Shown here in pieces: positions 3,643 through 58,611 of a stretch of DNA of 64,000 bases. How positions within the stretch are numbered: position 1 is the stretch's first letter; each line of letters begins with the position of its first letter. A program made the translations under genes and the position numbers. This stretch comes from Parcubacteria group bacterium Gr01-1014_3. GTDB taxonomy: Bacteria; Patescibacteriota; Minisyncoccia; UBA6257; WO2-44-18. The notes under the pieces are model-generated. The model made no database searches. It saw only the letters and a list, made by a program, of their open reading frames with translations, and had not been told where the DNA came from. The stretch covers positions 114,875 to 178,874 of the forward strand of contig VMGF01000001.1 of the NCBI GenBank assembly GCA_007376445.1, given 5' to 3'.

Positions 3643-5001
3643 TTATATTTTTAGCATTGCCTGGACGATCCGTTCGCCTGAACGGCCATCTAATTTCCAG
3701 CATTGCTGATCAATTATTTTTTTACGAGCTTCTTGATCCAAGGTCGGATCAATCAAATAATTATTGATCCATTCAACTAATACTTCCGGACTTTTCACGA
3801 CCCGGATCGCGCCGGTCGAAAGTGCTTTCTGATAATGCGCCATGCCATAATAAGCGGTCGGCCGCTTGTAGGGGTCCGGTTCTTGTCCGATTTCAAATCC
3901 AATATTGATAATCGGTTTGTCGAAAACCGCGATATCCACCACCAAGCTGGTCGGATAAGCCACTAGCATCGAAGAATAGTGTAGGGTATCCAGAAGATGC
4001 TGAAGATCATCAGAGTTCATGTCCCAATCAACGCCGCGTTTTTTGGAAAACCTGACACCAGGAGTGTCATAAATCAGCCAGGGTCGTTTTTTTATTTCTG
4101 CCTCGTCAGCAAAATCATTAGGCTGAAATCTCATAAGAATCTGCAAATCTTTAGAAATCCGGCCCTGTTTTTGAAGATTCTGAAGTAAATCTACCATGTC
4201 CCAATCGGTGTTGCTATAAGTCTTGCCAAGTGGGGCGTAAAGGAGAATTTTTTTGCTCGGATCAACGCCTATACGTTTATAGAAAGTTTCTCTGAGGCCT
4301 GGTTTTTTAAAAACATATTGATCGTACTGAGGAATTCCTACGATGGTAATCCGCTCCTCCGGCATATCGGCATAATCCATCGCCTCTTTTTTTACAATCT
4401 CGTTATAAACCAAAAGCTGGTCCGGCAAAAGACGCACCATGCACCGGACGGTTAGCTTGTCCCAAGAATTTATAAAGCCGATGGTTTTGATTCCTCGCCG
4501 CCTCGCCTCTTGCAGCATCATAATTTCCAAATCATCGAAAAGATGCGCCGAAAAAACTAAGTCCGGTTTGTACTTTTCAAAGAATGGCGCGAAAGTATTG
4601 TCTTTAACCAAACGATAATCCAACCAGCGGCTGATCTGCCGAAAAGGCTTTACCGCGAAAATCCTATTAAAAGCGAAAGAGAATGGATAAAGAACTCTGC
4701 TCATCGGGTTCTTTTCGGTTCTCATTCGTCGCCGGAGATCCAGCGTAGCCGTGTTAATCAATTTAAATTTCAAAAAGGAAAAGATATTATTCCAAAAACT
4801 CGCTTTTGGCCGATCGATTACCTCATAAACTACCTGATTATTTTTAAACTCGCCGCCATAGTAATCAGCCCTTTCCTTGCTGCTGACAAAAAATACCAGC
4901 CGTAGATTCGGCTCTTTTATTAAATTTCTATAGACTTCGGTGCGCAGAATGTTTTTCGCCTCCACGCCCTGGAGAATAGTAATAAAAATGGTTTTTTGCA
5001 T
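3643..5001 (-). CDS. CDP-alcohol (CDP-glycerol/ribitol) glycerophosphotransferase family protein, TagB/TagF-like, paralog 1 (452 aa)
   Basis: C-terminal region IGFEIGQEPDPYKRPTAYYGMAH...CWKLDGRSGERIVQ resembles the TagB/TagF C-terminus (DG-S-ERV). Paralogous to 19098..20417 and 44157..45512. Confidence 0.6.
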   Translation of the reverse strand: MQKTIFITILQGVEAKNILRTEVYRNLIKEPNLRLVFFVSSKERADYYGGEFKNNQVVYEVIDRPKASFWNNIFSFLKFKLINTATLDLRRRMRTEKNPMSRVLYPFSFAFNRIFAVKPFRQISRWLDYRLVKDNTFAPFFEKYKPDLVFSAHLFDDLEIMMLQEARRRGIKTIGFINSWDKLTVRCMVRLLPDQLLVYNEIVKKEAMDYADMPEERITIVGIPQYDQYVFKKPGLRETFYKRIGVDPSKKILLYAPLGKTYSNTDWDMVDLLQNLQKQGRISKDLQILMRFQPNDFADEAEIKKRPWLIYDTPGVRFSKKRGVDWDMNSDDLQHLLDTLHYSSMLVAYPTSLVVDIAVFDKPIINIGFEIGQEPDPYKRPTAYYGMAHYQKALSTGAIRVVKSPEVLVEWINNYLIDPTLDQEARKKIIDQQCWKLDGRSGERIVQAMLKI

Positions 5002-5029
5002 CGATAAATATAACCAAAAAACCGGTCTT

Positions 5030-5758
5030 TTAGTTACCGGACTTTTTACGCTCTTGCGCCTTAGAATATCGCTCGTGAGTCCCGATATCGTGCACGTAAT
5101 CGTCTACTCCGGCCAGATATCCATAATATTTTTCACCCTTGGAAATAATATCCGGTAAAAGATCGTGGTCAATCGCGCAGACACCGCTATCCGGAATATA
5201 TTTCAATATTTTTTTATTAAATAAATAAATTCCTTCCATGCCAAAATAATCGGTTTTTGGCATTTCTTTGTGTGGTTTTCGATAGATAGCAGTAAAGCGC
5301 ATATCTTTATCTAAAACTGCCAAATCGGAATCGTGCGGGTGGTCGTTTTTAGCTATCACATGAACACCAATCGCCGGTTGTTTCTTTTCGTAATAAGCCC
5401 GCATGTCTGAATAATTAATTTCATTAAACACATCTCCATAAACCACAAAAAATGAATCCCTTAGATATTTTTCAAATTTCTTTAAACCACCGGCGGTGCC
5501 AAGCAATTCGGGTTCGTAGGAATAAGTGATTTTCACGCCGAATTTAGAACCATCGCCAAAATAATCTTTAATAACCTCCGGTAAATAATGAAGATTGATA
5601 TAAAAATCATTAACGCCGTGTTCTTTGAGGTGTTCGATCTGATGTAGCAAAAGCGGCTTCCCCTCGATGGGTACCATGACCTTTGGAACTTTGTCAGTTA
5701 TCGGTCTTAGCCTTGTACCTAAACCGGCGCACATAATGACTGCTTGGCTAGTACTCAT
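5030..5758 (-). CDS. Sugar-1-phosphate nucleotidyltransferase (HddC/ManC-like, 242 aa)
   Basis: AVIMCAGLGTRLRPITDKVPKVMVPIEGKPLLLHQIEHL is the NTP_transferase G-loop (GxGTRL). Sits next to the heptose-pathway genes. Confidence 0.8.
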   Translation of the reverse strand: MSTSQAVIMCAGLGTRLRPITDKVPKVMVPIEGKPLLLHQIEHLKEHGVNDFYINLHYLPEVIKDYFGDGSKFGVKITYSYEPELLGTAGGLKKFEKYLRDSFFVVYGDVFNEINYSDMRAYYEKKQPAIGVHVIAKNDHPHDSDLAVLDKDMRFTAIYRKPHKEMPKTDYFGMEGIYLFNKKILKYIPDSGVCAIDHDLLPDIISKGEKYYGYLAGVDDYVHDIGTHERYSKAQERKKSGN

Positions 5759-5770
5759 TGCTCATATTTT

Positions 5771-5802: not shown

Positions 5803-5804
5803 AA

Positions 5805-6488
5805 CTACTCTTTTAAAACTCCAGCGTCCTTTAGGAACTGCTTTTGCGTCTTCACGCTCATCTTGTTCATCAAAAGTTCCGGCAGAAACTTGGTCGGAAT
5901 TGTCACGATGTGGGCGCCAGCTTCGTAGGCCCTAAGTACATCATTCTTCTTTCGAATACTGCCAACGATGATCTCCGAAGGCAACCGATACTGATCGATC
6001 AACTCGCGAGTCTTTCGAATCTCGGCTGAACCATCCAGTCCGGTATCCATGATTCGCCGATACAGCAAGCTGACATACTTCGCTCCGGCCTTGGCCGCGG
6101 CGAAAGCCTGAAACCAGGTAATGCAAGCAGTGCAGTTGACCGCGATCTCCTGCTGAGCCAGCTCGCGAATCACGGCTAGGCGATCGGTGCCATCAGTTCC
6201 CAAGATCGGGATCTTAATCGTCGTACCCTCATAATCCAGCTCATTCACGAACGACTTCGCCTGCTTCAGCATTTCATCGGGTGAATCACTGAACACTTCC
6301 ACGCTCAAAGAAATCGGTATGGGAGTGTATTTGCGGATCAATTCAACGATCTGCTTCCAAGCCGTCATCGGCTCAGTAACGCCAGCATTCTTCAATATGG
6401 TCGGATTCGTGGTGATGCCGTCCAAGAGGCCGGTCTTCAGCCAGCGATCGATTTCTTTGAGATCGGCGGTATCTAGAAAGGGCTTCAT
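5805..6488 (-). CDS. Transaldolase / fructose-6-phosphate aldolase family (short Tal/FSA type)
   Basis: MKPFLDTADLKEIDRWLKTGLLDGITTNPTILK is the Tal/FSA N-terminus, and IKIP holds the Schiff-base lysine. Start moved to the internal ATG at 6488, which has a GGAGG Shine-Dalgarno 9 nt upstream and forms an ATGA overlap with the upstream gene's stop. The longer track ORF to 6566 is probably over-extended. Confidence 0.8.
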   Translation of the reverse strand: MKPFLDTADLKEIDRWLKTGLLDGITTNPTILKNAGVTEPMTAWKQIVELIRKYTPIPISLSVEVFSDSPDEMLKQAKSFVNELDYEGTTIKIPILGTDGTDRLAVIRELAQQEIAVNCTACITWFQAFAAAKAGAKYVSLLYRRIMDTGLDGSAEIRKTRELIDQYRLPSEIIVGSIRKKNDVLRAYEAGAHIVTIPTKFLPELLMNKMSVKTQKQFLKDAGVLKE

Positions 6489-7111
6489 TTCTTTTCCTCC
6501 TTTTGGGCGCTCTCCCACTTTCCTTCTTGCAAACGGAATCCGGGGTTGGAAACGATCAGGTGCCAAACGACCGCCTGAAAAGATTCGGCATGCGGCGTAA
6601 CCGTTTCGGGGTTAACAGTTGGAATCAAGACGCAGACATCCGCCACCTGTTTGGTATAACCTCCATCGCGACCCACAATACCGATGATGCGCGCGCCCAC
6701 CTGCTTGGCATACTTAAGAGCTTCCACGATATTCGCGCTGATATTCTTCTCCGCGTTACCACCACCCACCGAAAGAACCAGGATGAGATCTTTTTCGCTA
6801 AGCCAGCTCGTTTGTAGCCAGCGGACGAAAACAGAATTCCAGCCATCGTCATTGGTCCGGGCAGTAATCTCGGAAACATTGTCAGTCGGCGCGTAACTTT
6901 CCATACCGCCCAATTTTCGAAAATCATTGACCGCGTGGCTAGCGTTGCCGGCGCTACCACCAACTCCCAGAATGAACAATCGTCCCCTAGAAGTACGAAC
7001 ATCAATGAGGATTTCGATAGCTTTATGAATTGAATCCTTATCTAACTTTTCAATGATCAACTTGGCTTCTTCCAGATAGGAATCGATGTATTCTTTCGTG
7101 CCGTTGTTCAC
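6485..7111 (-). CDS. SIS-domain sugar phosphate isomerase (GmhA-like sedoheptulose-7-P isomerase, 208 aa)
   Basis: GVGGSAGNASHAVND and LSVGGGNAEKNISAN match the GmhA GNGGS.../STSGNS pattern. Placed next to the transaldolase (S7P source) and the HddA-like kinase. Confidence 0.7.
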   Translation of the reverse strand: MNNGTKEYIDSYLEEAKLIIEKLDKDSIHKAIEILIDVRTSRGRLFILGVGGSAGNASHAVNDFRKLGGMESYAPTDNVSEITARTNDDGWNSVFVRWLQTSWLSEKDLILVLSVGGGNAEKNISANIVEALKYAKQVGARIIGIVGRDGGYTKQVADVCVLIPTVNPETVTPHAESFQAVVWHLIVSNPGFRLQEGKWESAQKEEKK

Positions 7112-7216: not shown

Positions 7217-8080
7217 CTACTTTCTCCAGTTTTTACCTCTATCTTCCGGCTTAACTCGGCGTAGATTATAAATTTCAGAATTCGCGATCTCTTCCAGATG
7301 ATTCGGAAAATCCCGGTAGTTGTCCCAGACAGCGCTTAAATACTTACCGGTAATTCCAGAGGCTTCCGGAGAGGCCAGCCAGACAATCAATTCAGCCGCC
7401 TTGTCCGGAGACTGGCCACCGTCTTGGTTTTGCTTGACCGATCGCTCCCAAATTTCCTTGCCTACCTTATCCGGTCCAGCGGCTAAAAGATCATCAAGGA
7501 ACTTGGTGTTAACCGCGCCAGGCGCGATAGCGTTCACGAAAATATTGTATTCTTTCAGCTCAGCCGAAAGACTCTCAGTGAAACCAACCACCGCGCGTTT
7601 AGACGCGCTATAGGCGGTGAAGTTTGGTAACGCTCCATCGCCGCCGCCGGAAAAATTCACGATCCGGCCTCCACCACCCTTCTTCATAAATGGAATCGCC
7701 AGTTGACACATCGCGACCGTGCCCAGAAAGTTGATGGCAATCGTCTGCATCCATTTTTCAAAATCATTATCTTCCAATGGTCCAATCGGGCCATAAATGC
7801 CAGCCGCGTTCACCAGTACGTCGAAATGACCCTGCCAGGTAGTCTCGATAAAAGCGCGGATGGCTTTTATGTCTTTAGGATTTGAAACATCGCCATCATA
7901 AATAAAAACAGCGGAGCCAAGCTCAGTTTTGGCCTTCTTTAGTTCATCAAGAGTGCGTGAGATGAGAAGCACCCGGTCGCCATTTTTGACGAATGCTTCG
8001 GCAACCGCTCGGCCAATTCCGCGCGCGCCACCCGTAATTACGATATACCTTGGTGTCTCCATGTGATTGTTCCTTTCCAA
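7217..8080 (-). CDS. Short-chain dehydrogenase/reductase (SDR), 287 aa
   Basis: ITGGARGIGRAVAEAF Rossmann TGxxxGIG motif and YSASKRA catalytic YxxxK motif. Confidence 0.85.
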   Translation of the reverse strand: MERNNHMETPRYIVITGGARGIGRAVAEAFVKNGDRVLLISRTLDELKKAKTELGSAVFIYDGDVSNPKDIKAIRAFIETTWQGHFDVLVNAAGIYGPIGPLEDNDFEKWMQTIAINFLGTVAMCQLAIPFMKKGGGGRIVNFSGGGDGALPNFTAYSASKRAVVGFTESLSAELKEYNIFVNAIAPGAVNTKFLDDLLAAGPDKVGKEIWERSVKQNQDGGQSPDKAAELIVWLASPEASGITGKYLSAVWDNYRDFPNHLEEIANSEIYNLRRVKPEDRGKNWRK

Positions 8081-8093: not shown

Positions 8094-9230
8094 TTATAAT
8101 ACGACTTTGGTTTTTTTCAATGCCGCCTGGCTTTTAGCCAAATATTCTTTCGCCTCCGGATACTGCTTAACCCATCCCACATACTGGTCAACATTATCCT
8201 TAAGCGTGTATTTCGGCTTCCACCCAAGCTTTTTGAGCTTAGAAATATCCATGATCTGATGACGCGGGGTGTTTAACCGGTAAGATCCTTTGATTTCGGG
8301 ATCGTATTTGGTTTTTGTGGCCTTCGCGACCAATTTAGCTAAATCCAAAACGGTGGTAATTTCTCCGCTTCCAATATTGAAAGCTTCGTAATTCGCCCGA
8401 GAATCTTCCAGTAATTTTAGGTGGGCGCTCGTGACGTCTTTAACGTTCACGAAATCGCGGATCTGATTACCGTCCTCATGCACGCTCAACGTCTGACCCG
8501 ATAAAGACTGGATCGAAAAGGCCCGCAAAGCTCCAGAATAAAAATTACGAAAAGATTGCCTAGGGCCATGAACAATCGAATAGCGCACGGCCACCGAAGG
8601 AATGCTGTAAATTTTTCCGAGAAGTAAGGCAGTCCGCTCGGCCGCCATCTTAGATACTCCGTAAGGAATTTGCGGGCGTAGCTCATCGCTTTCAAATTCC
8701 GGAACCGGCTCCATCGCCGATCCATCATGCGGGCACTTCATCTCCCACTCCCGCTTTTTGAGCTGGCCTTCCTCGCGCGGCGCCATGTAAATAATTCCAT
8801 GCTTTTTACACTTGTACTTCCCTTCTCCATAAACTGATTGCGAAGAAGTGACGATAATTTTTTTCACCGGCAATTTCTTGGACGTGATTATTTCATAAAG
8901 CATGGCAGTGCTGGCCGTATTGGTTAGGAAATAAGTGCTGAAATCCATATGGTAATCCATATGCGCCGCTAGGTGAAAAATATAGTCCGTGCCAGTCATC
9001 GCCTTTTCAAGATCGGCTCGATTACGCACATCACCCTTCATAAATTCAGCTTTTTGATTGAACCACTCCGGCAACTGGTTGTTGTGGGTCGGCGGAGCAA
9101 GATTATCTAGTACGCGGACACGATAGCCAGCCTCGAGCAGGCCATCGACAAGATGCGAGCCAATAAAACCGGCGCCACCGGTAACTAAAACTAATCCCTT
9201 ATCTTTTTTTGGTTTACTTGTTTTGGGCAT
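8094..9230 (-). CDS. NAD-dependent nucleotide-sugar epimerase/dehydratase (extended SDR) with a Cys-containing insertion, 378 aa
   Basis: VLVTGGAGFIGSHLVDGLL N-terminus and YGVSK catalytic motif. Carries an about 40-aa insert (KCKKHGIIYMAPREEGQLKKREWEMKCPHDGS). Confidence 0.8.
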   Translation of the reverse strand: MPKTSKPKKDKGLVLVTGGAGFIGSHLVDGLLEAGYRVRVLDNLAPPTHNNQLPEWFNQKAEFMKGDVRNRADLEKAMTGTDYIFHLAAHMDYHMDFSTYFLTNTASTAMLYEIITSKKLPVKKIIVTSSQSVYGEGKYKCKKHGIIYMAPREEGQLKKREWEMKCPHDGSAMEPVPEFESDELRPQIPYGVSKMAAERTALLLGKIYSIPSVAVRYSIVHGPRQSFRNFYSGALRAFSIQSLSGQTLSVHEDGNQIRDFVNVKDVTSAHLKLLEDSRANYEAFNIGSGEITTVLDLAKLVAKATKTKYDPEIKGSYRLNTPRHQIMDISKLKKLGWKPKYTLKDNVDQYVGWVKQYPEAKEYLAKSQAALKKTKVVL

Positions 9231-10233
9231 AGATTTTTTCGACTATCTTAAGCATTTCATAAGCATCCTTGCCGGAAACCGCCGGCTCACGATTTTCTTT
9301 GATGGCTGAAACGAATTCCGCGATCAATCTTTCTAAAGAAGTTTCTGATGTTTCCTTATCAAATACAACCACCTGCTCGGTCGGCGGGTTACGGAACTCC
9401 GGATCTCGCTTACCAATGATCAAACGCTCCGGACCAACATATCGATTGTCCAATCCTTCGATCGTAAGATAGCCGTCCGATCCCATGATCTCAAAAGAGT
9501 GCACCCATTTCCACTGTGTCCAGCTCACATGGATCGAAGCTACACGTCCATCTTGGGTTTTTAAAAGGGCGAAACCATTATCCTCCACTCCATTTTTCCA
9601 AAATAAAGTCGGTGTAAAACCAGTCACTTCCGGAAATTCTCCTAAGAATTGCCTGGATAGATCGATCATATGGCTTCCCTGATCCAGCAACTCGCCGCCA
9701 CCGCTCATTTCTTTATTGAATCTCCATTCGTTGGCATAGCCTGGGCGTCCACCAAAACCATATCTGGCGCGCACAAAAAGAATCTGCCCGATCTCGCCTT
9801 TGTCAACTAACTCTTTAGCCATTAAAAAAGCCGGATGATAACGATGATTGAATCCAATCATGTATTTCGCGCCAGTCTTCTCAGCCATCTTGATTGCCTG
9901 GGCAATCTCAACGCTACTAACACCTCCCGGCTTTTCGGAAAGAACATGCTTATTATTTTTCAAAGCCTCGATGGCAATTTCGGTTAAAAATTTATGCGGC
10001 GTAACAATAACTACCGCGTCCACATCCGCGCTCTTAACAACTTCACGCCAATCCAATTCGGCGCGACAGTCTTTTATCTCTTTGGCTAAGACTTCGGCTC
10101 TTGGCTTATCCTGATCGGAAATACAAACCAAAGAAACATTCGAAGAATGTTTAAGCGCGTGCGCCCATTTGGTGCCCATGCCACCGGCGCCAATTAGCGC
10201 GACCTTGATTGTGCCCGAATTGATCATTACCAC
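9214..10233 (-). CDS. Gfo/Idh/MocA family oxidoreductase, 339 aa
   Basis: KVALIGAGGMGTKWAHAL N-terminal Rossmann fold and the EKP motif (HVLSEKP). Confidence 0.85.
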   Translation of the reverse strand: MVMINSGTIKVALIGAGGMGTKWAHALKHSSNVSLVCISDQDKPRAEVLAKEIKDCRAELDWREVVKSADVDAVVIVTPHKFLTEIAIEALKNNKHVLSEKPGGVSSVEIAQAIKMAEKTGAKYMIGFNHRYHPAFLMAKELVDKGEIGQILFVRARYGFGGRPGYANEWRFNKEMSGGGELLDQGSHMIDLSRQFLGEFPEVTGFTPTLFWKNGVEDNGFALLKTQDGRVASIHVSWTQWKWVHSFEIMGSDGYLTIEGLDNRYVGPERLIIGKRDPEFRNPPTEQVVVFDKETSETSLERLIAEFVSAIKENREPAVSGKDAYEMLKIVEKIYAQNK

Positions 10234-11278: not shown

Positions 11279-11889
11279 CAGATGCCCTCCGAAATAAAGT
11301 TTGAGTAATAAGTACTGTCTTCGATCAACAGCGCGGCGAAGATGCCGGCCGCCGTTGCCAAATCCCGAATCGCTCCACTTCCAACCATTTGCAGAACCTC
11401 ATCTCGGGTACAAATCAAACACTCGACACCTTGAAGCTCATCTTGCTTGGCCTGATCGGTAAGCTGACAATCCAAAGCGACGTACAGTCGGCAAGGATTG
11501 TCGACTCGGTCAGAAAGCGGATAAAACTTATCGCCGATTTTCTTAATCGACAACGGAAGATAACCAACTTCTTCTTTCATTTCTCGAATGACCGAGAAGT
11601 ACCAGCCATCATCGCTAGGTTCGCGACTACCGGCCACGCCTTCGATCGTAACTCCCGCGACCGGCTTAAATTGCCTGGTCAAGATAAATCTTCCGTCCCG
11701 CAAACGAGGAATCACCATCACATACCCACCATTTTTTGCGGTAAGACGGAGAAAATTTTTCATCTCTTTGCCATTATCAAATTTCACGTCAACCAAATCT
11801 GCCGTCACCCACTTATCATCATGGATAACTTGCCGAACCGAAATCTCAGCGCTTTTGGCGATACCCAAGTATCCTCCTTTGGTTATCAA
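11278..11889 (-). CDS. NUDIX hydrolase, 203 aa
   Basis: Nudix box GVAGSREPSDDGWYFSVIREMKEEVGY (Gx5Ex7REUxEExGU). Confidence 0.75.
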   Translation of the reverse strand: MITKGGYLGIAKSAEISVRQVIHDDKWVTADLVDVKFDNGKEMKNFLRLTAKNGGYVMVIPRLRDGRFILTRQFKPVAGVTIEGVAGSREPSDDGWYFSVIREMKEEVGYLPLSIKKIGDKFYPLSDRVDNPCRLYVALDCQLTDQAKQDELQGVECLICTRDEVLQMVGSGAIRDLATAAGIFAALLIEDSTYYSNFISEGI

Positions 11890-27969: not shown

Positions 27970-27971
27970 TT

Positions 27972-38786: not shown

Positions 38787-38875
38787 AAGATACCTCCGAT
38801 ATTCGTAAGAACCGCTTCATTTATATCATAAAATCCAAAATAAGCAAAGCTAGACCAATCATAAGTTTTTTGATT

Positions 38876-47981: not shown

Positions 47982-48048
47982 GTGTCTATTGATTATAAAA
48001 CACGAAAAACCCTTAAAAAGATACGGGTTCTGGAAATAAAAAAGGAGC

Positions 48049-48933: not shown

Positions 48934-48994
48934 TCGTTTTCCTCCAAGAAAGCTTGCAACGTTCTGCGTACCATTTTACAGTTAAAATTACCCT

Positions 48995-50641: not shown

Positions 50642-52863
50642 AGCGTTGATAGAAGTTGAGCTACTTGATTGATCGTATTTTCGATTGAGAATTGTTTAAC
50701 TTTTTCCTTGGCGTTTTTCGTAATCATCCCGCGAAATTCCGGATCACTATCAATCTTATGAATTGCCGCCAGAATCTCTTGTTTGTTATTCGGCTCAACC
50801 AAAATACCCTCTTTATTATTCTCCACGATTTCTGATAAATTGCCGATATTCGTGGTAATAACCGGCGCGCCAACATGCATCGCCTCAACTAACTGGAATG
50901 AGAAGCTTTCGAATGAAGTATTCAAAATAAAAATACCGGACTGCGCCAGTCGCCTTAACAACTCTTCCCTGGGAATCTGACCACTCAACAAAACCCTGCC
51001 TTGTAACTTTAAACTTTCAACTTTTAACTTAAGGGTTTCACTCTCGGGGCCATCGCCAATAATCTCAAGGCGCCAATCTGGTAATTCTTTCATGATTTCA
51101 ATTAGCACATCAAATCCTTTCCATGGCACCAGGCGACCGGCCGAGATAATAATCTTAGAGCGCTTAGCGCTTAGCGTGTTAGGATATAGGGGCTTTAAAT
51201 CAATTCCGTTATAAATTGCCCGGACTTTTTCCGGATGTTTGATCCAACCGCCAACCAGTTTCTGAAAATACTTGCTGGGTGTAATAACCGCATCGGCATT
51301 TCTTACGACAAACTTTTGAATCGCTCGCATCAATTCGACTCGCCAGCCATGTTTTTTGCTTTGAAATTCATCAATGCCGTCTTTTACGCCAAAACGCTGA
51401 ACGGACTGCTCCCAGACATAGTCACCCGGCACCCGAAGGACAAAGGGACGACCGAGAAGCTTCGCCGCTAAAAGCGCCGGCAGGCCAACGCTAATCGTAT
51501 CTTGGGCGAAAACAATATCCGCCTTCCTTGCCCTGCGAAGCGCCTTAAAAAAATACAACAAGTGCCTAACTCCCGGCGGCCAGCCACGCACGAGGCGGAA
51601 CGGTAAAACCGCTACCCCAAATCCTCGTTTCGGTAATTCTCGCTCCAGCAAAACGGCATAGGTGGCCGGCCCGCCGATTTCCGGCGGATAAATACCGGTA
51701 GCCAGAAGGACACGAATCATGAATCTAGAATCGTGAATCATGGAACGAAAAATTTTGTCCATCTTCTGAGAAATTAAATCCCATGAATAGTTGGCCAAAA
51801 TCAACTTTCGCCCATTTTCCGCAAGCCGCTCGCGGAGCTTCTGGTCATTTATCAGCTCGCTGATTTTTTTAGCCAGATCTTCCGAATCTTCTGAATTACA
51901 GATCAAGCCGGTTTCATTATGTTTCAAAAAATCTACGATACCCCCGACCGGTGTTCCAATAACCGGCAAGCCAGCCGCCATGGCTTCCAAGAAGGAGTTG
52001 CCCAATCCTTCCGAGCGTGATGCCCTGACAAAAATCTCCGCGAATCCTAAATATTGAGGAATCTTATCCGCAGAAACTTGCCCTAAGAAGCTCACTCGTG
52101 AGTTAACCCCCATATCATGGGCTAACTTTTCCAACGATGCTCGATCTGGTCCATCGCCTAAAATTTGTAAAGAATAATCTTGATTCTTCAGCCTTGCGAA
52201 TGCGCTAATTAAAATATCGACTCCATTCTTATGGACTAACCGTGAAGTAGTTATTATTATTTTATCGTTATTCTTGATTCTTGATTCTTGATTCTTGATT
52301 CTTGCCAGGTCGACTCCATTCGGCACTACCTCGATCGGGCAGATCGCCCCATGGCGGCGCGCGAAGTCGGCCAAATATCCGCTAATAGCTTGAATATAGT
52401 CCGCTTTTTTAAAGATCAATCTCCAGAGCGGATAAAATAAACCGACGCGGGATAGAATATGCCTCTCGCTATCACCCTCCTGAAGAGTAAGTAACATCGG
52501 TATTGATGGATGACGCAGTTTAAAGAAAAGAGCGGCCAACCCGCCATAAGATGCCATCATTGCCCAAATAGCCTCAAATTTATTCTTCTGATGTTCGCGC
52601 TCAGCCGCCCGCCAAGCGCGAAAAATGTAGGTCAGCTTTTCCCAAAAACGTCCATAGTAATCGGCCGTAGTTTTTGCCGAATTGCCGGTTCCTAGTCGAA
52701 CAACTTTAGTATTTTTTGTTTCGGAGGTAGCTGGCCAGGAATCGTCGAACTTGTGGGTAAAGATCGTAAAGTGATCGTTAGATTGGCTAACAATCTCCTT
52801 AAGCGCTATTTCGGCTCCTCCTGAAAATGGATCATAGGCCAGGCTAAAGACGGCAAGTTTCAT
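50638..52863 (-). CDS. Tandem GT4-GT4 fusion glycosyltransferase, 741 aa
   Basis: Two GT-B units. The first begins MKLAVFSLAYDPFSGGAEIAL and ends EGLGNSFLEAMAAGLPVIGTPVGG. The second begins IRVLLATGIYPPEIGGPATY and ends ESFSFQLVEAMHVGAPVITTNIGN. Confidence 0.8.
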   Translation of the reverse strand: MKLAVFSLAYDPFSGGAEIALKEIVSQSNDHFTIFTHKFDDSWPATSETKNTKVVRLGTGNSAKTTADYYGRFWEKLTYIFRAWRAAEREHQKNKFEAIWAMMASYGGLAALFFKLRHPSIPMLLTLQEGDSERHILSRVGLFYPLWRLIFKKADYIQAISGYLADFARRHGAICPIEVVPNGVDLARIKNQESRIKNNDKIIITTSRLVHKNGVDILISAFARLKNQDYSLQILGDGPDRASLEKLAHDMGVNSRVSFLGQVSADKIPQYLGFAEIFVRASRSEGLGNSFLEAMAAGLPVIGTPVGGIVDFLKHNETGLICNSEDSEDLAKKISELINDQKLRERLAENGRKLILANYSWDLISQKMDKIFRSMIHDSRFMIRVLLATGIYPPEIGGPATYAVLLERELPKRGFGVAVLPFRLVRGWPPGVRHLLYFFKALRRARKADIVFAQDTISVGLPALLAAKLLGRPFVLRVPGDYVWEQSVQRFGVKDGIDEFQSKKHGWRVELMRAIQKFVVRNADAVITPSKYFQKLVGGWIKHPEKVRAIYNGIDLKPLYPNTLSAKRSKIIISAGRLVPWKGFDVLIEIMKELPDWRLEIIGDGPESETLKLKVESLKLQGRVLLSGQIPREELLRRLAQSGIFILNTSFESFSFQLVEAMHVGAPVITTNIGNLSEIVENNKEGILVEPNNKQEILAAIHKIDSDPEFRGMITKNAKEKVKQFSIENTINQVAQLLSTL
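52280..52314. repeat. Perfect heptanucleotide tandem repeat (ATTCTTG)x5 inside the tandem GT4 gene
   Basis: Direct reading: attcttg x5 (35 nt), preceded by (TTA)x3. On the coding strand it encodes ARIKNQESRIKNN, in the interdomain linker just before the C-terminal Rossmann domain (IITTSRL). Confidence 0.85.
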
Positions 52864-52910: not shown

Positions 52911-54068
52911 ATGAAGATCCTGTATCTGGTTACCAAAGACGACGTGGGTGGCGCTCAAAAGTATGTTTCCGATCTCGCTGATTATATGGCTAAGGCCGGC
53001 CATGAAGTTTCAATCATAGCCGGTGGCAAAGGTGGAGTCAGGTTTCTTTCTAATAGGTTAATGCCCTATATCTTGTTCGTTAATGATTGGCTAGCCATAG
53101 CCGAAATCGCTCTGTTATTTCTTAAGAAAAAGCCGGATGTAATCCATTTAAATAGCTCGAAGACCGGAATCGTTGGAACGTTCGGGGCTCTCCTTTATAA
53201 TTGTCTTAGAAAATTGACCGGGCAAAGCACTGCTAAAGTTATCTTCACGGCGCATGGCTGGGTCTTCAATCCAAGTAATCATCTTGGAACGTTGCGAAGG
53301 AAAATATATGTGCTTATTCACCGCCTGACTTCGCCGTTTCAAAATATGATAATCAGCGTGTCCGAATTTGATCGAGCCCTAGCAATAGAAAATAAAATCG
53401 CTCAAGAAAATAAGCTGGTAACCATTCATAACGGCCTAGACTATAATAAACTAACCTTTCTCGACCGGTCGGGGGCAAGAAAGACGCTGGTACGCCTGGC
53501 ATCTTTACCACAGGAAATTTTACAGAATAACGACACCTGGGTCGGTTCTATTGGCCGGTTGGTTCTAGAAAAAAACTATCTGGACTTCGTCGAAGCCGCG
53601 GCCTTAGTGAAAAACTCCCAGGTCCGTTATTTCATAATCGGAAGCGGCGAGGATTTTAATAAATTAACGAACCGCATCATTAAACTTGGGTTGCAAAATA
53701 AGTTTTTTCTAATTCCCCAGCTCTCGCCTGCCGCCAACTTCTTGAAGGCTTTCGATATTTTTTTGCTGTCCTCGATCAAGGAAGGATTTCCATATAGCCT
53801 CCTCGAAGCAATGAGCGCCGAACTGCCGGTAATTGCCACACGAGTAGGCGGCATACCTGAAATGCTGGCTACAAACAATAAAGAAACCTGCGGCCTGGTA
53901 ATGCCGCCCAAGGAGCCGGCCGAATTAGCTAGAGCTATAAGCTATCTTATAGACAATAAAGAGATTGCAGTCGACATGGGTAAAAAAGCCGCTCTCAAAG
54001 CAAGGGGTGAGCTAAATATAGCCCAAATGGGGTCTAAAACACTTCGGGTTTATTCAGAAAGTCGTTGA
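52911..54068 (+). CDS. GT4 glycosyltransferase, 385 aa
   Basis: EGFPYSLLEAMSAELPVIATRVGGIPEML GT4 motif. Confidence 0.8.
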   Translation: MKILYLVTKDDVGGAQKYVSDLADYMAKAGHEVSIIAGGKGGVRFLSNRLMPYILFVNDWLAIAEIALLFLKKKPDVIHLNSSKTGIVGTFGALLYNCLRKLTGQSTAKVIFTAHGWVFNPSNHLGTLRRKIYVLIHRLTSPFQNMIISVSEFDRALAIENKIAQENKLVTIHNGLDYNKLTFLDRSGARKTLVRLASLPQEILQNNDTWVGSIGRLVLEKNYLDFVEAAALVKNSQVRYFIIGSGEDFNKLTNRIIKLGLQNKFFLIPQLSPAANFLKAFDIFLLSSIKEGFPYSLLEAMSAELPVIATRVGGIPEMLATNNKETCGLVMPPKEPAELARAISYLIDNKEIAVDMGKKAALKARGELNIAQMGSKTLRVYSESR

Positions 54069-54754
54069 ATCTCTACCATCAAGGACGAATCGTTGGGATT
54101 TAATTCCAAGGCCTTTTTATAAAACTCTATCGCCTTATCCTTGAAACCGAAATCTTTGTAATAATTCGCAATCGAATTTAGACCACCATAGGCATTCTGG
54201 CTGTCTATACTGATGGCCGTAAGAAAATTCGATTCGGCTTTCTGTGGTTCCTTCAAATAATACCCATAAAGGTTGGCCAGGTTTAAGTAGGTCAATGGCT
54301 GATTCGGGGCCACTATTTTTGCGTATTCCCAGGCATCGCGAGCGCCAATAAAATTATTAAAAAACTTTTTAAAATTACCCAGCGCCATCCAGCTATTAAA
54401 ATCATTTGAATCCTCAGATAGGGATGCGGACAAATGGGTCAACTGCACTCTTTTGATCGCAATCGCGCTAGCTGGCAACTGTGAAATCATCGGATCATCG
54501 CCAATCATGTTAATAATCTGGCCAGTATACTTTGGTAATTTAACTATCGGCTTGTCCTGAGCTTGTCGAACGGGATGTTCGCTGTTAGTTGTTATTTTTG
54601 GGTTACCAGTAGTCGAAGCAGTGACGGCCACCTCTGAAGCTTTCTCCTTCTCGGCCGCCAACTCTATCTTATGGCCAGAAAACCAAAAATAAAAGCCTGA
54701 TATGCCGACAAGGGCCACCCATATTAAAAATCCTATTCCCAGTACTTTTTTCAT
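54050..54754 (-). CDS. Membrane-anchored TPR-repeat protein, 234 aa
   Basis: N-terminal TM helix (VLGIGFLIWVALVGISGFYFWF). C-terminal TPR-like repeats (AISIDSQNAYGGLNSIANYYKDFGFKDKAIEFYKKALELNPND). Confidence 0.6.
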   Translation of the reverse strand: MKKVLGIGFLIWVALVGISGFYFWFSGHKIELAAEKEKASEVAVTASTTGNPKITTNSEHPVRQAQDKPIVKLPKYTGQIINMIGDDPMISQLPASAIAIKRVQLTHLSASLSEDSNDFNSWMALGNFKKFFNNFIGARDAWEYAKIVAPNQPLTYLNLANLYGYYLKEPQKAESNFLTAISIDSQNAYGGLNSIANYYKDFGFKDKAIEFYKKALELNPNDSSLMVEIQRLSE

Positions 54755-54846: not shown

Positions 54847-57800
54847 TTAGAAAGTGAGAACTTCAGCTGAGGTCGAAACGGACGGAACGCCAGGCAGTAA
54901 GAATCCAGTGAACCAGTCATCGGATGCAATACCTTGCGTGGAGTTTGTCGCGTTGTCGGACCAGATAAAGTTGTCGTCATCACCCGCTACGATGGTAGCT
55001 TCAGTGGTAGCCGTGAAGGTACCAGCTGACACCGCGTCAATTAAGGCAGCGGTAGCAGTGAACCGACCAGCTTGAGCCTGACCAACGTTAGGTGATGGAG
55101 AGTAGTCGCAAGCGGAAACAACGTTTTCGCTCGCAGCCACGTCGCAATGAACCGCGTTCCAGCCCGCATCACCAAGAATCTTGGTCGAGATGTTTGGGGT
55201 GCTAGAAGCGCCGGTTACATCAGCTTTCAATTCAAACCAGCGAGTTTCGCCAGCTGAAATACGGATGGCCTCAGCAGTCGCGCCGCTAGAAGCGGTCGGA
55301 TTGAAGAGAACCGCAACATCAACATCTGGATCGGCGTTGGAAACGACGTCCTCGAAATCAACGTTGGTACCATCGGCAATTGCCAAACCGAATTGGTTCA
55401 ACAAACCGCTGGAATTACCGCAAGAACCTTGGCTGAATCCAGCATCGGAGTAGCAGTAGAGCCTCAAGTTCGTAACTCGGAACACACCGGCGTCCTCAGT
55501 TTCGTAATTGGTGACAGCGGTGGTCGAGGTAGAAACATTGAAGGTCATCTTATACAGGCTTACACCATTGGTACCGGCCGGAGCGTCTATCTTAAAGCGA
55601 TAGAGAGTCTGGTCAGAGGTATTGGTGAACTTGCCGGAAGTCGCGAGCTTGGAAAGGGTCGGCATCGCCTTGACGATCCTAGCGCCGTTGGAAGCCGTAT
55701 CGACTCCAGCAGTGTAGACAGTCGTACCGGACGAAATACCAATCGCTTTACCACCCTGCGCGCCCTCATTCGCGTCATCGTCTGGAGCATCACCCCAAGC
55801 GGCGTTGTAGTCAACATTGATTAAGTGACCAGGAACGGCCTGAGACAAAGTCGTATTCATCGGAGAAATATCGGCCTTGATGGTCAATAACTTCTGGCCA
55901 TCCTTCGGAATAACGAAGTTAGACAAAGTGGCAGTCGCGTAATCACCGGTAAAGGTTACTTCACCGACTTTCGTCGCGCCATCCCACAGAGTGACTTTCG
56001 TCAAATCAGACGGAGAGTTGGAAGCATTGGCCTGATCATTAGCGGCAGACGTAGTAGCTAACTGAAGACCCAACAGATCAAGGCGAACATCTTCATAAGA
56101 AGCGTTGAACCTCAATACAGACAAGGTCTGATCAGTCGCGCCAGCCTGAATCAACTTCAATGACGGACTCGAAGAATCAAGAGCAAGGGTCAGAGTACCA
56201 CCGGTCTGGGCAACGATCGTGCGGCCGAGGTCAGTGGTAACAGTCTCTGCAACTGAAGTACCGGAGGTAACACCGGTTACAACAGCTTGGTTAGCCGCGG
56301 TCGTAAGACCACCAGCTCCCCAACCTACATACTCTACGGTTCCACCAGCAGTCAGGTTACAAACCAAGGCCAACGTCTTAGCGGTCCCTTTAGGAACTAC
56401 CAAGCTGGTGTCGAAGGTGAAGGTTTTATCCACACCCGCGGCATCATCGTTAGACGGATTGACGATGTTCGTACCAGTATTCAAGGCAGTAGCGCCATCT
56501 TTCAGCTGACAGTTGGTTAACTCATCAGCAGTGTTCGCTGGGTATGAAGTGGTCAGATCAAGCTGCATCGAAGTGATGCGGAGATCTTCGCCAGACTCGC
56601 TGGCATCCAAAATATACTTGGCAAACTGATAAGCACCAGTACCCTTTACAACGTTCTGGTTCGGACTGGAAGAAGCGGTGTCGGTTGAAATAGTTAACAC
56701 CAACGCTCCAGTCTTAATGGTCATTGTGCTCAACGTAACCGTACCGCCAGAAGGAGTAATGGTCTGAGAAGAATTAGTTCCCTTGACCGTAGTCCAATCG
56801 GAAGACGGAGTCGTAGAAGCGGCAAACTGGTCATTCTGGGCAAAATCAGTGCCAATCTTACCTTTTAAGGTGTAAGTGTGGCGACCAACTTTAAAGGTAA
56901 CGGTATCGGAGAAGCGGAAGGCATTATTGCCACCAACTTGACCATCAACCGGACCAGCTACAACCTTACCATTTTCATCAACCAACGTTACGTTGGTCAA
57001 ATCATTGGAATCGATCGTACCACCAGTACCAGCAGCTTCAATCGTAGACGCGTCGAAGTTCATAGCGGCAACCGTCACGTCTTCACCCTTTACATCGGCA
57101 ACGAAACCACCGAGTACCTGGTCAGCCAAGTTCTCCGCGATATTCTGAGAGCCGACGGAAGTGGCTTTCTCAACGGACAAGCTACCTGCGCCAATTGTTA
57201 CTTCATAAGCATCATAGTTCGGCTGGGTGTTTTGCAACGTACCATCATCATCCGTGGATGAATCCGCAGAATCAGTGGCAGTCGGCAAGACATCATAACC
57301 ATAGGTCATACCAGTCGCCTTAATATCGGCATAGCGATACAAGTCGAAGTCAACGCCACGGTTAGAACCGCTTAATACATCGCCTTTGATGTAAACCTCC
57401 TTATTAAGACCCTTGGCAATAGTAATACCAGTGCCAAAGATAGCGGTGTAATACTTACCATCCGTACTAACGGTGGTGTCATACATAACGCCATCCAAAT
57501 AAGTCTTAAGGTTACCCAAATCAGAAGCAGCCGCGGAACCACCTTGATTCCAACGAATGGATTTAACCAAGATGTCTTCGTTAGCGCCAGCGGTAAGCTT
57601 CAAGCCAGCAAAGATGTAGCCAGCGGTGCCAATTTCCTTAGTTGCAGCGGTACCTGGATCCAAAGCACCACGCTCCAAGGTCATGCTACCAATGGTAAGC
57701 GTGCTGTTTACGGTCATATAGTTACCGACTAACGGGAAACCAGCGTTAACATTCGCTGAACCTGCATCGACGCCAACCAAGCTTAAGCTGACTAACTGAC

Positions 57801-58611
57801 CATTGTAATCATTCTGATCAGCATCGGAATCACCGGATAAGGTGATCGTCCTGGACTGACCGGCTTTAACTACGAATTTGTCGGTTAATTTCAACTTGTG
57901 GTCGGAACCGAAAGTCTTAGTATCACCCATTCGGATACCGTTTTCATCCAAGCCAACAACACCGCTGAAAGCGGCGTCATTACCTTGGCCAGTCCTCTCA
58001 ACGGACAACGAGGCTACGGTGATATCACCATCGGAAGACGCCGTTAACACCAACTTGGTGAATGGGCGGCTAGCGAAGGATTCGCCAAAAAGACCCGAAG
58101 CGGGTTGATCAGATGCTAAGGAAACGGACAAGCCTGAGCCACCTACTACTGGGCCAGGAGCCGGGGATGGGGTCGGTGATGGGGCTGCTCCAACAGAAGC
58201 AACCTTAGCACGCGTTATTGGACCAAAATAACCAACGGCCGGAGAGATGCCCACAGAAGCCTGATAGGCAGCCAACGCGGCTTTAGTTAATGATCCAAAG
58301 TATTCTGTAGCAGACGCGATCTTCAAATGACCCTTGCTGATCAAGAAGTTCTGCAAAGCCGTTACGTCAGCACCCCTGCTACCCACAGTGAGGTTGCGAG
58401 TATAGTTGTATGACGGAGCGGAAGAAGAACTGCCAGACGCAAGTTGCGCTTGAAGAGCAGCAATCTGAGCTAACAGAGCATTAATCTGAGCCTGTAAATC
58501 GGTCGATTGCGCAAAGGCAACCGGAGCCAATAACGAGGACCCAGTAAGCCACACAACAGTGGTTGCGGAAAGCAATACTGAAGTGAGTTTCTTTGTTATT
58601 GAATTACTCAT
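54847..58611 (-). CDS. Giant secreted/surface protein (1254 aa): signal peptide, Ala/Gln coiled segment, putative peptidoglycan-binding domain, then Thr/Ser/Gly-rich tandem beta-sandwich-like modules
   Basis: N-terminus MSNSITKKLTSVLLSATTVVWLTGSSLLAPVAFAQ (signal peptide); LQAQINALLAQIAALQAQL; GSRGADVTALQNFLISKGHL...YFGSLTKAALAAYQ (PG_binding_1-like). Then about 1000 aa of T/S/G/A/V/D/N-rich sequence with recurring roughly 100-aa modules such as ...VTLVDENGKVVAGPV...FKVGRHTYTLKGKI.... Confidence 0.7.
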   Translation of the reverse strand: MSNSITKKLTSVLLSATTVVWLTGSSLLAPVAFAQSTDLQAQINALLAQIAALQAQLASGSSSSAPSYNYTRNLTVGSRGADVTALQNFLISKGHLKIASATEYFGSLTKAALAAYQASVGISPAVGYFGPITRAKVASVGAAPSPTPSPAPGPVVGGSGLSVSLASDQPASGLFGESFASRPFTKLVLTASSDGDITVASLSVERTGQGNDAAFSGVVGLDENGIRMGDTKTFGSDHKLKLTDKFVVKAGQSRTITLSGDSDADQNDYNGQLVSLSLVGVDAGSANVNAGFPLVGNYMTVNSTLTIGSMTLERGALDPGTAATKEIGTAGYIFAGLKLTAGANEDILVKSIRWNQGGSAAASDLGNLKTYLDGVMYDTTVSTDGKYYTAIFGTGITIAKGLNKEVYIKGDVLSGSNRGVDFDLYRYADIKATGMTYGYDVLPTATDSADSSTDDDGTLQNTQPNYDAYEVTIGAGSLSVEKATSVGSQNIAENLADQVLGGFVADVKGEDVTVAAMNFDASTIEAAGTGGTIDSNDLTNVTLVDENGKVVAGPVDGQVGGNNAFRFSDTVTFKVGRHTYTLKGKIGTDFAQNDQFAASTTPSSDWTTVKGTNSSQTITPSGGTVTLSTMTIKTGALVLTISTDTASSSPNQNVVKGTGAYQFAKYILDASESGEDLRITSMQLDLTTSYPANTADELTNCQLKDGATALNTGTNIVNPSNDDAAGVDKTFTFDTSLVVPKGTAKTLALVCNLTAGGTVEYVGWGAGGLTTAANQAVVTGVTSGTSVAETVTTDLGRTIVAQTGGTLTLALDSSSPSLKLIQAGATDQTLSVLRFNASYEDVRLDLLGLQLATTSAANDQANASNSPSDLTKVTLWDGATKVGEVTFTGDYATATLSNFVIPKDGQKLLTIKADISPMNTTLSQAVPGHLINVDYNAAWGDAPDDDANEGAQGGKAIGISSGTTVYTAGVDTASNGARIVKAMPTLSKLATSGKFTNTSDQTLYRFKIDAPAGTNGVSLYKMTFNVSTSTTAVTNYETEDAGVFRVTNLRLYCYSDAGFSQGSCGNSSGLLNQFGLAIADGTNVDFEDVVSNADPDVDVAVLFNPTASSGATAEAIRISAGETRWFELKADVTGASSTPNISTKILGDAGWNAVHCDVAASENVVSACDYSPSPNVGQAQAGRFTATAALIDAVSAGTFTATTEATIVAGDDDNFIWSDNATNSTQGIASDDWFTGFLLPGVPSVSTSAEVLTF

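Follow-up and report, generated by a model that had tools for sequence, protein, structure and literature searches.

A stretch of 64,000 nucleotides from Parcubacteria group bacterium Gr01-1014_3 (hereafter the window) covers the greater part of a super-locus for envelope glycans that is at least 65 kb long. Taking all the evidence together, this locus probably builds its products on polyprenol carriers, with a giant 1254-aa secreted envelope protein, encoded near the right-hand end of the island, as the most plausible acceptor. The source is a metagenome-assembled genome (MAG) of a tiny-genome groundwater member of the Parcubacteria in the candidate phyla radiation (CPR), in which the sequence lies on a 400-kb contig (locus tags G01um10143_1xx), and an independent copy of the same sequence is present in the ENA assembly ERZ27284378 (contig k139_87659, 264 kb; locus L004). 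We translated 56 open reading frames (ORFs) of the window and scanned each against Pfam, and the key ORFs also against NCBIfam; positions are those of the window, and its features lie on the minus strand unless marked (+). The initial annotation, made from the sequence alone, had described a composite glycan-biosynthesis island in a small, streamlined genome, and both parts of this description agree well with our results, the former with the Pfam and NCBIfam scans and the latter with the CPR/Patescibacteria affiliation and the coding density of the window (96.8%). The tRNA and Rfam scans of the window gave no matches.

About 47 consecutive ORFs at 3643-54068 belong almost without exception to sugar or glycan families of Pfam. 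The start of the island, which had been placed at 3643, is not a boundary: the genes for an acyl carrier protein, an AMP-ligase, ACPS and a GNAT protein at 493-3617 are also members, and in the ENA copy the island reaches at least 9 kb to the left of window position 1, including the genes for FolD, a second GNAT protein, a formyltransferase, two more TagB/F-like proteins, a methyltransferase, UDP-GlcNAc 2-epimerase, a second CMP-transferase, a 2-hydroxyacid dehydrogenase, a cupin and an EamA-like membrane protein. The right end is formed by the genes for a tetratricopeptide repeat (TPR) protein and the giant protein, followed by housekeeping genes (HTH, ClpB, NifS-like, FtsK and RecA). The GC content is patchy within the island (0.39-0.50 per 2-kb segment; 0.46-0.50 at 6-14 kb and 0.41 at 0-6 kb), as might be expected of a mosaic assembled from modules of separate origin.

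The presence of a Wzx-like flippase candidate and many genes for glycosyltransferases (GT) of family GT4 might suggest a classical O-antigen or lipopolysaccharide locus, or a Wzy-dependent capsule locus, but this is effectively excluded. Pfam and gene-content scans of the window and its 10-kb flanks identified no ABC transporter or exporter, no Wzy, Wzz, Wza or Wzc, and no ligase or polymerase of the Wzy_C type (WaaL), and Parcubacteria are reported to be without lipid A biosynthesis (PMC5220378). That no Wzy, Wzz or ABC exporter is recognisable had been noted in the initial annotation, which also regarded a classical O-antigen as the less likely reading, and the absence extends to the sequence just outside the window, where such genes together with a lipid A-core ligase would point to an O-antigen and where none were found.

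The giant envelope protein and its gene neighbourhood

The giant protein (54847-58611) is composed of a signal peptide, a short coiled coil, a PG_binding_1 domain at residues 79-135, the Pro/Ser/Thr linker GAAPSPTPSPAPGP at residues 141-154, and an acidic remainder of about 1100 aa with a high content of Thr, Ala, Gly and Ser. Its name in NCBI, SpoIID/LytB protein, appears unfounded, since no SpoIID or related domain was detected in Pfam or NCBIfam. After an exhaustive HMMER search, 2229 cluster representatives were collected (494 at E<1e-30), most of them 1150-1250 aa in length and alignable end to end, and by this homology the giant protein is a member of a widespread family of predicted Parcubacterial envelope proteins. 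The gene has its own upstream region of 328 bp with a promoter-like site, beyond which lies the gene for an HTH_DeoR-like protein (58940-59599; Pfam HTH_DeoR), a conserved neighbour found at the same position in L035, L038, L040 and other loci.

For analysis of the gene order we fetched 84 loci with giant homologues and mapped the window proteins on them (two contigs with giant homologues were too short to inform); 58 of these loci have at least 1.5 kb of sequence downstream of the giant gene, and 43 at least 5 kb. The gene for the TPR protein, which in the window is membrane-anchored by an N-terminal transmembrane (TM) segment (54050-54754; Pfam TPR), follows the giant gene in 55 of the 58 loci. 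The order HTH, giant, TPR, GT4(-), double GT4, GT4 was found in 15 of the 43, made up of all 8 loci with at least 49% identity and 7 that are more distant. In the window this conserved block consists of GT4 genes at 52911-54068 (+) and 49478-50641 (Pfam and synteny) and, between them, a double GT4 gene at 50638-52863, whose 741-aa product carries two GT4 modules (Glycos_transf_1 in two stretches, 286.8 bits) and recurs beside giant homologues. The block is often accompanied by genes for an epimerase, DUF218, Wzx and a TagB/F-like protein. The NDP-sugar epimerase/dehydratase gene of the window lies at 48049-48933 (Epimerase E 4.6e-40) and that for the DUF218 protein at 48995-49519 (+) (Pfam DUF218), the latter being kept in the same block in L047. 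An ORF of 320 aa at 48067-49029 (+), antisense to the epimerase gene and without a family match, is probably spurious.

Genes of the protein O-glycosylating PMT/PMT_2 family were detected by hidden Markov model (HMM) search in the neighbourhood of the giant gene in 8 separate loci, L038 having one. In four contigs (L062 13784-18068, L068 13712-19119, L089 4208-8999 and L104 4418-8659), two genes for polytopic proteins of 540-616 aa, which Pfam identifies as bona fide PMT/PMT_2 enzymes, are located in the interval between the giant and TPR genes, where they flank a small (300-350 aa) peptidoglycan (PG)-binding paralogue of the giant's N-terminus, and the TPR gene and four GT4 genes come after. 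This arrangement may represent a compact candidate cassette for protein O-glycosylation. In L118, a family-A-like GT-C gene (see below) and a methyltransferase gene follow the GT4 block. Such recurring gene orders speak for glycosylation of the giant family, at least in some members of the clade.

The small PG-binding paralogue between two PMT genes could also be taken as a sign that the enzymes serve general O-glycosylation of many envelope proteins, such as type IV pilins, lipoproteins and PG-binding proteins, in line with the streptococcal GtrB/PgtC2 and Pgf systems and the Bacteroidota system, all of which are general (PMC12041528, PMC8550257). This possibility is improbable in our view, because the window contains no pilin genes and the conserved synteny is specific to the pair of giant and TPR genes.

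Membrane transferases and their partners

Four GT-C-type transferases are encoded in the window, and all-against-all BLAST resolved them into two pairs of paralogues, families A and B; the four polytopic proteins as they stand in the window gave nothing in Pfam or NCBIfam even at E<=1. Family A is represented by a 615-aa membrane protein (15419-17266), with many hydrophobic segments in a hydropathy scan, and by a second copy split in two ORFs. Among 5.8 billion proteins, 49 relatives were detectable, none with a Pfam domain, and all 27 loci found in GTDB species-representative genomes come from Patescibacteria MAGs. The family-A profile had no significant match to PDB sequences, whereas the AlphaFold model obtained from 31 homologues (pLDDT 91.9, pTM 0.91) matches the fold of solved GT-C enzymes, with AftA, not PMT, as the best structural neighbour. 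In these 31 homologues D50 is nearly invariant, within an acidic DGGD motif in the first extracytoplasmic loop after TM1. Judged from this model, family A is a predicted GT-C-fold enzyme of an undescribed family. PMT (PF02366) or PMT_2 (PF13231) identity was rejected, as no window protein matches either at E<=1. The proposal of two ArnT/PMT-like enzymes thus stands at the level of fold and not at that of family, and one of the two genes proved to be divided.

This second family-A gene consists of an N-terminal ORF (38765-39340 (+); TM1 and first loop), 42% identical to residues 15-148 of the 615-aa paralogue, and a C-terminal ORF of 483 aa (39330-40781 (+)), 36% identical to residues 165-612. 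The split is shared by the NCBI and ENA assemblies, and other metagenomes contain homologues (P0055-57) that are about 484 aa long, which suggests a natural two-piece GT-C rather than a pseudogene.

Overlapping the intact family-A gene by 4 bp is a GT2 gene (17263-18171), of which the product carries a C-terminal TM hairpin (TM segments at residues 224-277). In PDB it can be aligned along its entire length, hairpin included, with ArnC (E 3e-46, residues 2-300), GtrB (7e-24) and DPMS (5e-20), and in NCBIfam, always below cut-off, ArnC (174 bits), PgfS (129) and AglJ (85); by family assignment this protein is a predicted polyprenyl-phosphate sugar synthase of ArnC/GtrB type. Of the two DPM1/GtrB-like GT2 genes listed in the initial annotation, only this one encodes the hairpin, while the other (37230-37925) encodes a short soluble protein without TM segment, in which the catalytic domain alone (Glycos_transf_2) resembles ArnC (PDB E 6e-12) and DPMS (2.6e-8). 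The gene overlap, together with the co-conservation of the GT2 in 19 of 29 Patescibacteria loci that carry the family-A core, suggests that family A may use a polyprenyl-phosphate-linked sugar as donor. Other members of the core in the same 29 loci are TagB/F-like genes (20-23 loci), CMP-transferase (16), methyltransferase (14) and CE4 (11). In the window, the CE4 gene and then a TagB/F-like gene follow directly after the GT2 gene. The CE4 polysaccharide deacetylase (18175-19095), confirmed by Pfam (Polysacc_deac_1 E 3e-21), is without signal peptide or TM segment, and its homologues of at least 40% identity adjoin family-A genes in 11 related loci. Its nearest solved relative is a streptococcal polysaccharide deacetylase, and no ArnD-specific similarity was seen.

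The family-B copies (25766-28005 and 29540-31706) are 50% identical to each other, with homologues of about 775-790 aa that carry PF09586 (YfhO). Both genes are C-terminally broken in the window, copy 1 being recognised by a frame change in tblastn, and both are intact in two independent ENA assemblies, with products of 769 and 772 aa, respectively. The window lacks 103 bp near 25948 in copy 1 and 151 bp at 29708 in copy 2. The two paralogues share a repeat of 165 nt with 92% identity (25785-25949 and 29544-29708), and both gaps are situated exactly at its edge and are most likely an assembly artefact. Over the C-terminal 64 aa or so the two proteins are about 80% identical, as compared with about 50% for their whole length, and gene conversion could also account for this. 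Intact copies 1 and 2 score 45.1 and 37 bits with YfhO (the latter for P0003), above the gathering score (GA) of 28.5, the match being limited to the last 60 residues or so; family B may accordingly be described as distant YfhO relatives. For the two YfhO-like transferases of the initial annotation, the agreement lies in the C-terminal ends of the intact copies, and the genes in the window are broken. Profile-profile comparison gave no relation between families A and B (probability 1.6%).

Every GT-C gene abuts or overlaps a gene for an S-adenosylmethionine (SAM) methyltransferase. The intact family-A gene is directly followed by 14611-15405 (Methyltransf_11), the split one is overlapped at its end (ATGA) by 40781-41629 (+) (Methyltransf_23 E 1e-23), and YfhO copies 1 and 2 are directly preceded by 27972-28775 (Methyltransf_11; 59% identical to the 14611-15405 product) and 31710-32453 (Methyltransf_23/11), respectively. 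As SAM is cytoplasmic, methylation of the sugar would precede its flipping.

Sugar activation, transfer and the wall-polymer alternative

By family assignment, the cytoplasmic modules are predicted to make unusual activated sugars. The gene families of the three nucleotide-sugar routes that had been named in the window are all confirmed, with only RfbF at the level of an equivalog. A sedoheptulose-derived, heptose-like branch is represented by a ManC/HddC-like sugar-1-phosphate nucleotidyltransferase (5030-5758; NTP_transferase E 1.8e-33, with Man1P-GTase and HddC below the NCBIfam cut-off), a transaldolase/FSA family protein (5805-6566; TAL_FSA E 1.3e-35), for which the ENA gene call indicates 6488 as the likely start and a length of 227 aa, a GmhA-like SIS-domain isomerase (6485-7111; Pfam SIS_2) and an HddA-like GHMP sugar kinase (13554-14555; GHMP_kinases_N/C). 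The scores for the GDP-D-glycero-D-manno-heptose pathway are below cut-offs (GmhA, TIGR00441, 61 versus 209 bits; HddA 117 versus 600; HddC 98 versus 300), a GmhB-type phosphatase was not found among the window proteins, and the four-enzyme equivalog test for this pathway failed, leaving a heptose-like route plausible. The CDP-hexose branch includes glucose-1-phosphate cytidylyltransferase RfbF (34164-34979), the only pathway enzyme above an NCBIfam equivalog cut-off (TIGR02623, 312.5 versus 300.25 bits), an RfbG-like CDP-glucose 4,6-dehydratase (33166-34182; TIGR02622 213.7 versus 278 bits; GDP_Man_Dehyd) and an NDP-hexose C-methyltransferase of TylC3 type (35947-37227; Methyltransf_14, Methyltransf_13 and Methyltransf_23).

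The third branch, of nonulosonate type, is formed by a NeuB-family PEP-condensing synthase of 289 aa without SAF domain (24861-25730; Pfam NeuB 271.7 bits, below the NeuB and PseI equivalog cut-offs), a cytidylyltransferase for CMP-sugars of nonulosonate or Kdo type (20463-21200 (+); CTP_transf_3; PseF 124 versus 206 bits), a short-chain dehydrogenase/reductase (SDR; 21172-21912; adh_short_C2) and a Gfo/Idh/MocA oxidoreductase (21909-22868; Pfam). No aminotransferase for an amino-sugar step, including the ArnB type, was found in the window; the UDP-GlcNAc 2-epimerase gene sits in the left flank. In a related Parcubacterial locus (L006), a gene for a 173-aa HAD protein (2523-3044; Hydrolase_3, KdsC/KDN-9-P phosphatase-like), which has no counterpart in the window, lies directly upstream of NeuB and hints at a phosphorylated sugar as the starting compound of the branch, in the manner of the Kdn and Neu5Ac-9-P routes.

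Next to NeuB is the gene for a tandem Pol-beta-type nucleotidyltransferase of 643 aa (22929-24860 (+)), each half carrying a helical domain. This protein had been taken for a double LicD-like enzyme, an identification that we reject: LicD (PF04991) gave no match, NTP_transf_2 and Polbeta being the only Pfam families detected, a GS...DxD motif is conserved, and the AlphaFold2 model (pLDDT 91.5) finds its best structural matches in the aminoglycoside nucleotidyltransferases ANT(3'')(9), AadA and ANT(4'), plus MNT/HEPN proteins. The profile had no significant match to PDB sequences. A protein of about 640 aa of this type is always encoded between NeuB and the CMP-transferase in the related Parcubacterial loci (L006 4089-6023 and L007 551-2467), and this conserved module of predicted NeuB, nucleotidyltransferase and CMP-transferase is newly established here. 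To our knowledge, no role of a tandem Pol-beta nucleotidyltransferase in nonulosonate pathways has been described.

For methylation we counted one B12-radical-SAM enzyme alongside nine SAM methyltransferases of class I, in agreement with the earlier estimate of more than nine. In addition to the TylC3-type enzyme and the four that are paired with GT-C genes, the class-I set includes 28828-29562 (+) (Methyltransf_11), 32535-33173 (+) (Methyltransf_25), 42770-43579 and 43495-44184 (both Pfam). The B12-binding radical-SAM enzyme (11950-13491; B12-binding and Radical_SAM) is a putative C- or P-methyltransferase, and its best NCBIfam model is the PhpK-like Sden_1168 P-methyltransferase (159 versus 575 bits); since PEP mutase is not present, a sugar C-methyltransferase is more likely. 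Other modifiers, besides CE4 and DUF218, are three further NDP-sugar epimerase/dehydratases, namely that at 48049-48933, one of 378 aa (8094-9230; Epimerase and GDP_Man_Dehyd) and one of 309 aa (10349-11278; Epimerase E 4e-47), and two NUDIX hydrolases (11278-11889 and 38004-38786; Pfam NUDIX). The window also encodes a short-chain dehydrogenase with only generic NCBIfam matches (7217-8080; adh_short E 7.7e-51), a Gfo/Idh/MocA sugar oxidoreductase (9214-10233; GFO_IDH_MocA) and a similar protein with the N-terminal domain only (35031-35945; GFO_IDH_MocA).

The left module, at 493-3617 and L004 11529-14536, comprises a 79-aa acyl or peptidyl carrier protein (493-732; PP-binding 30.1 bits; called in the ENA copy at L004 11529-11768), an AMP-binding adenylating enzyme of 514 aa (716-2260; E 8e-70), a 4'-phosphopantetheinyl transferase (2248-2592; ACPS E 2.5e-19), two GNAT-like proteins, one of them of 341 aa in the window (2592-3617; Acetyltransf_1 E 1.6e-9), FolD and the formyltransferase, of which the nearest solved relative is the formylation domain of linear gramicidin synthase. 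From its gene content, this module looks like machinery for putting a (formyl-)aminoacyl or acyl group on an amino sugar.

Transfer by GT-B enzymes involves six GT4 modules, which are distributed over five genes, not six as had been noted, because one is double; apart from the block beside the giant gene, the genes lie at 41630-42739 and 46893-48086 (both Glycos_transf_1). A polytopic protein with about 10 TM segments (45512-46891) is a candidate MOP/Wzx-like flippase, and its earlier identification as such is borderline, with Polysacc_synt (PF01943) at E 3.7e-6 and 27.0 bits against a GA of 28.2, no NCBIfam match and only noise in the PDB search. Three TagB/F-superfamily proteins of the window modestly exceed the GA of Glyphos_transf (PF04464, 22.1 bits), namely copy 1 (3643-5001; 39.2 bits), copy 2 (19098-20417; 42.8) and copy 3 (44157-45512; 31.0), and five are encoded in the whole island. 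Three such proteins had been annotated as TagF-like alditol-phosphate transferases; their number and superfamily are correct and the alditol-phosphate function is unproven. Their best NCBIfam model is BFO_1060 (NF046086; 47, 77 and 39 bits, under the 200-bit cut-off), copy 2 also having 50 bits with TIGR04396, below cut-off, and the TagB-like BFO_1060/Tanf_01245 transfers pseudaminic (Pse) or legionaminic acid (Leg) onto the Tannerella S-layer O-glycan (PMC5420450). The profile search of PDB gave only a weak C-terminal match to TarL (E 0.003), and the alignment shows no evident HP or D/E-D/E-G motif of sialyltransferases. Because of the resemblance to BFO_1060, the lack of a CDP-alditol pathway and the clustering of these genes with CMP-sugar genes, nonulosonate transfer may be at least as likely as alditol-phosphate transfer, which we offer as a lead only; the product of 3643-5001 is a candidate CMP-nonulosonate or polyol-phosphate transferase.

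These same enzymes are also the basis of a serious rival, in which the island makes a teichoic-acid-like secondary cell-wall glycopolymer, anchored to PG or lipid and decorated by GT2 and GT-C enzymes as in Firmicutes, while the giant protein would be no more than a neighbour or would bind the polymer as S-layer proteins bind such polymers. The occurrence of S-layer genes beside anchor-polymer genes is a known arrangement, as in the sap/eag and csaB region of Bacillus anthracis, and favours this alternative. It is consistent, too, with the five Glyphos_transf genes of the island, with the streptococcal relationship of CE4, and with the many Patescibacteria loci in which the nonulosonate/TagF/GT-C core lacks a giant homologue within 10 kb. 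The YfhO family glycosylates lipoteichoic and wall teichoic acids (PMC5836110, PMC8035078), YfhO acting on teichoic acids together with CsbB (PMC5836110). The window and its 10-kb flanks, however, contain no TagD, TarI or TarJ for synthesis of CDP-glycerol or CDP-ribitol, no TagO/WecA, no TagGH exporter and no LCP ligase, the Tannerella nonulosonate-transferase model gives scores with the TagB/F-like proteins, whose genes adjoin CMP-sugar genes, the giant protein has a PG_binding_1 anchor of its own, and PMT-family genes flank giant homologues in 8 loci. On balance we consider a wall polymer somewhat unlikely, in second place after the giant protein as acceptor and ahead of general protein glycosylation.

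The acceptor, related systems and significance

In the scheme that we favour, with the giant protein as acceptor, an oligosaccharide would be built on a polyprenol carrier by the GT4 and TagB-like enzymes and flipped by the Wzx-like protein. In parallel, GT2 would load single sugars, probably methylated and/or de-N-acylated, on polyprenyl phosphate, and, once these had been flipped, the GT-C enzymes would carry out their transfer on the outer side of the membrane. The giant protein, a candidate S-layer-like glycoprotein, would be modified at its Ser/Thr/Pro linkers and surface, possibly with the help of its invariant TPR partner. A similar case is known in streptococci, where the YfhO-family PgtC2 with GtrB, and the Pgf system, O-glycosylate Ser/Thr-rich regions of envelope proteins (PMC12041528). 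The link between island and giant protein comes from gene neighbourhood, and we propose this acceptor tentatively, with chances close to even; it would apply at least to the right-hand GT4/Wzx part of the island.

Several observations weigh against this scheme. The initial annotation correctly recognised a 1254-aa signal-peptide protein with a PG-binding domain, but its description of about 1 kb of Thr/Ser-rich modules was overstated: Ser+Thr amounts to about 22%, with 48% in one 50-residue stretch, there are only three short Ser/Thr/Pro runs, BLAST detected no internal repeats at E<=10, and the motifs N-X-S/T (15 versus 14.1 expected) and D-S/T-X (5 versus 9.0) are not enriched, so the protein is not mucin-like. 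The classic substrates of YfhO and TagB/F relatives are teichoic acids. Neither a priming phosphoglycosyltransferase nor an O-oligosaccharyltransferase of the PglL/WsaB type (PF04932, Wzy_C) was found in the window or the 10-kb flanks, nothing in the window was detected with an HMM derived from nine PMT-family proteins encoded beside giant homologues, and the sugar-pathway assignments are mostly under the NCBIfam equivalog cut-offs. As for gene order, the proposal of the giant protein as glycosylation target is supported by the GT4 synteny in 15 of 43 loci and the PMT genes in 8 loci, but 28 of the 43 giant loci have no glycosyltransferase nearby, and a giant homologue is absent within 10 kb in all 27 genome loci with family A and in all 29 loci with the family-A/nonulosonate/YfhO core. 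For these last two reasons the island looks composite, the right-hand part being syntenic with the giant gene and the left and middle part apparently recurring independently.

Comparison with known systems indicates that the island is a variant of surface-glycosylation systems already described, not a new kind of system, and that it is unusually large for a CPR genome. The Firmicutes three-component system consists of a CsbB/GtrB GT2, a GtcA flippase and a YfhO/GtlB GT-C, and includes the streptococcal GtrB/PgtC2 and Pgf. The island shares with it the GtrB/ArnC/PgfS-like GT2 with TM hairpin, the YfhO-family GT-C, a monoderm-type envelope and a possible Ser/Thr-linker acceptor. It differs in that the YfhO match is restricted to some 60 residues at the C-terminus, that a second, unclassified GT-C family is present, that each GT-C gene is coupled to a methyltransferase, that no GtrA/GtcA flippase was found in the island, only the EamA-like gene in the flank, and in its CPR setting. 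The PMT/Ppm1 O-mannosylation of Actinobacteria and eukaryotes (GT39) follows the same logic of a polyprenyl-phosphate sugar synthase and a GT-C-fold enzyme, and relatives of the island have true PMT/PMT_2 genes by the giant gene, whereas the window proteins have neither a PMT/PMT_2 match nor MIR domains, and AftA is the closest structural neighbour. In the Arn pathway (ArnA, ArnC, ArnD, ArnE/F and ArnT), ArnC is the best solved and NCBIfam match of the island GT2. The cytoplasmic CE4 and the GT-C are encoded in adjacent, co-conserved genes, and the flank contributes a formyltransferase, FolD and an EamA-like protein, and the GT2/CE4/GT-C trio together with the flank genes parallels ArnC, ArnD, ArnT, ArnA and ArnE/F in logic. 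In contrast to the Arn pathway, the island has no lipid A acceptor and no ArnB-type aminotransferase in the window, its CE4 is not ArnD-specific and its formyltransferase is generic.

The S-layer glycosylation clusters (slg) of Geobacillus and Paenibacillus and the Tannerella O-glycosylation locus likewise combine a glycan cluster and methyltransferases with a gene for a large surface protein, and the Tannerella locus, with its nonulosonate cap, resembles the island also in the nonulosonate pathway and the BFO_1060-type TagB-like transferases. Unlike these clusters, the island has GT-C enzymes instead of a Wzy_C-type O-oligosaccharyltransferase, lacks an ABC exporter, and has in the giant protein only a candidate S-layer protein. 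With the glycerophosphotransferases TagB and TagF of wall teichoic acid it shares the three proteins passing the Glyphos_transf gathering score, and it departs from them in the missing CDP-alditol synthesis, TagO, TagGH and LCP ligase, in the weakness of the similarity to TarL and in the CMP-sugar neighbours.

Earlier genome papers noted many glycosyltransferases in Parcubacteria and speculated on a glycosylated S-layer (PMC5220378). Newly established in this study are the undescribed GT-C family, the tandem nucleotidyltransferase that is conserved with NeuB, the occurrence of GT-C genes side by side with methyltransferase genes, and, by comparison of gene order, the recurrent linkage of the predicted giant and TPR genes with glycosyltransferase and PMT genes. 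Taken together, we infer that rare, heavily methylated sugars are made by the island and added at the cell exterior, with the giant protein as the most plausible acceptor. The CPR/Patescibacteria episymbionts attach to their hosts by way of the envelope, which is essentially uncharacterised. The concrete candidates now at hand are a widespread PG-anchored giant protein with its TPR partner, a recurrent glycosyltransferase block with PMT-type genes, a GT-C family restricted to Patescibacteria, and the conserved NeuB/nucleotidyltransferase/CMP-transferase module. If the giant protein is indeed glycosylated by the island enzymes, this would indicate how an organism unable to make lipids or nucleotides of its own nevertheless spends several percent of its genome on a sugar coat.

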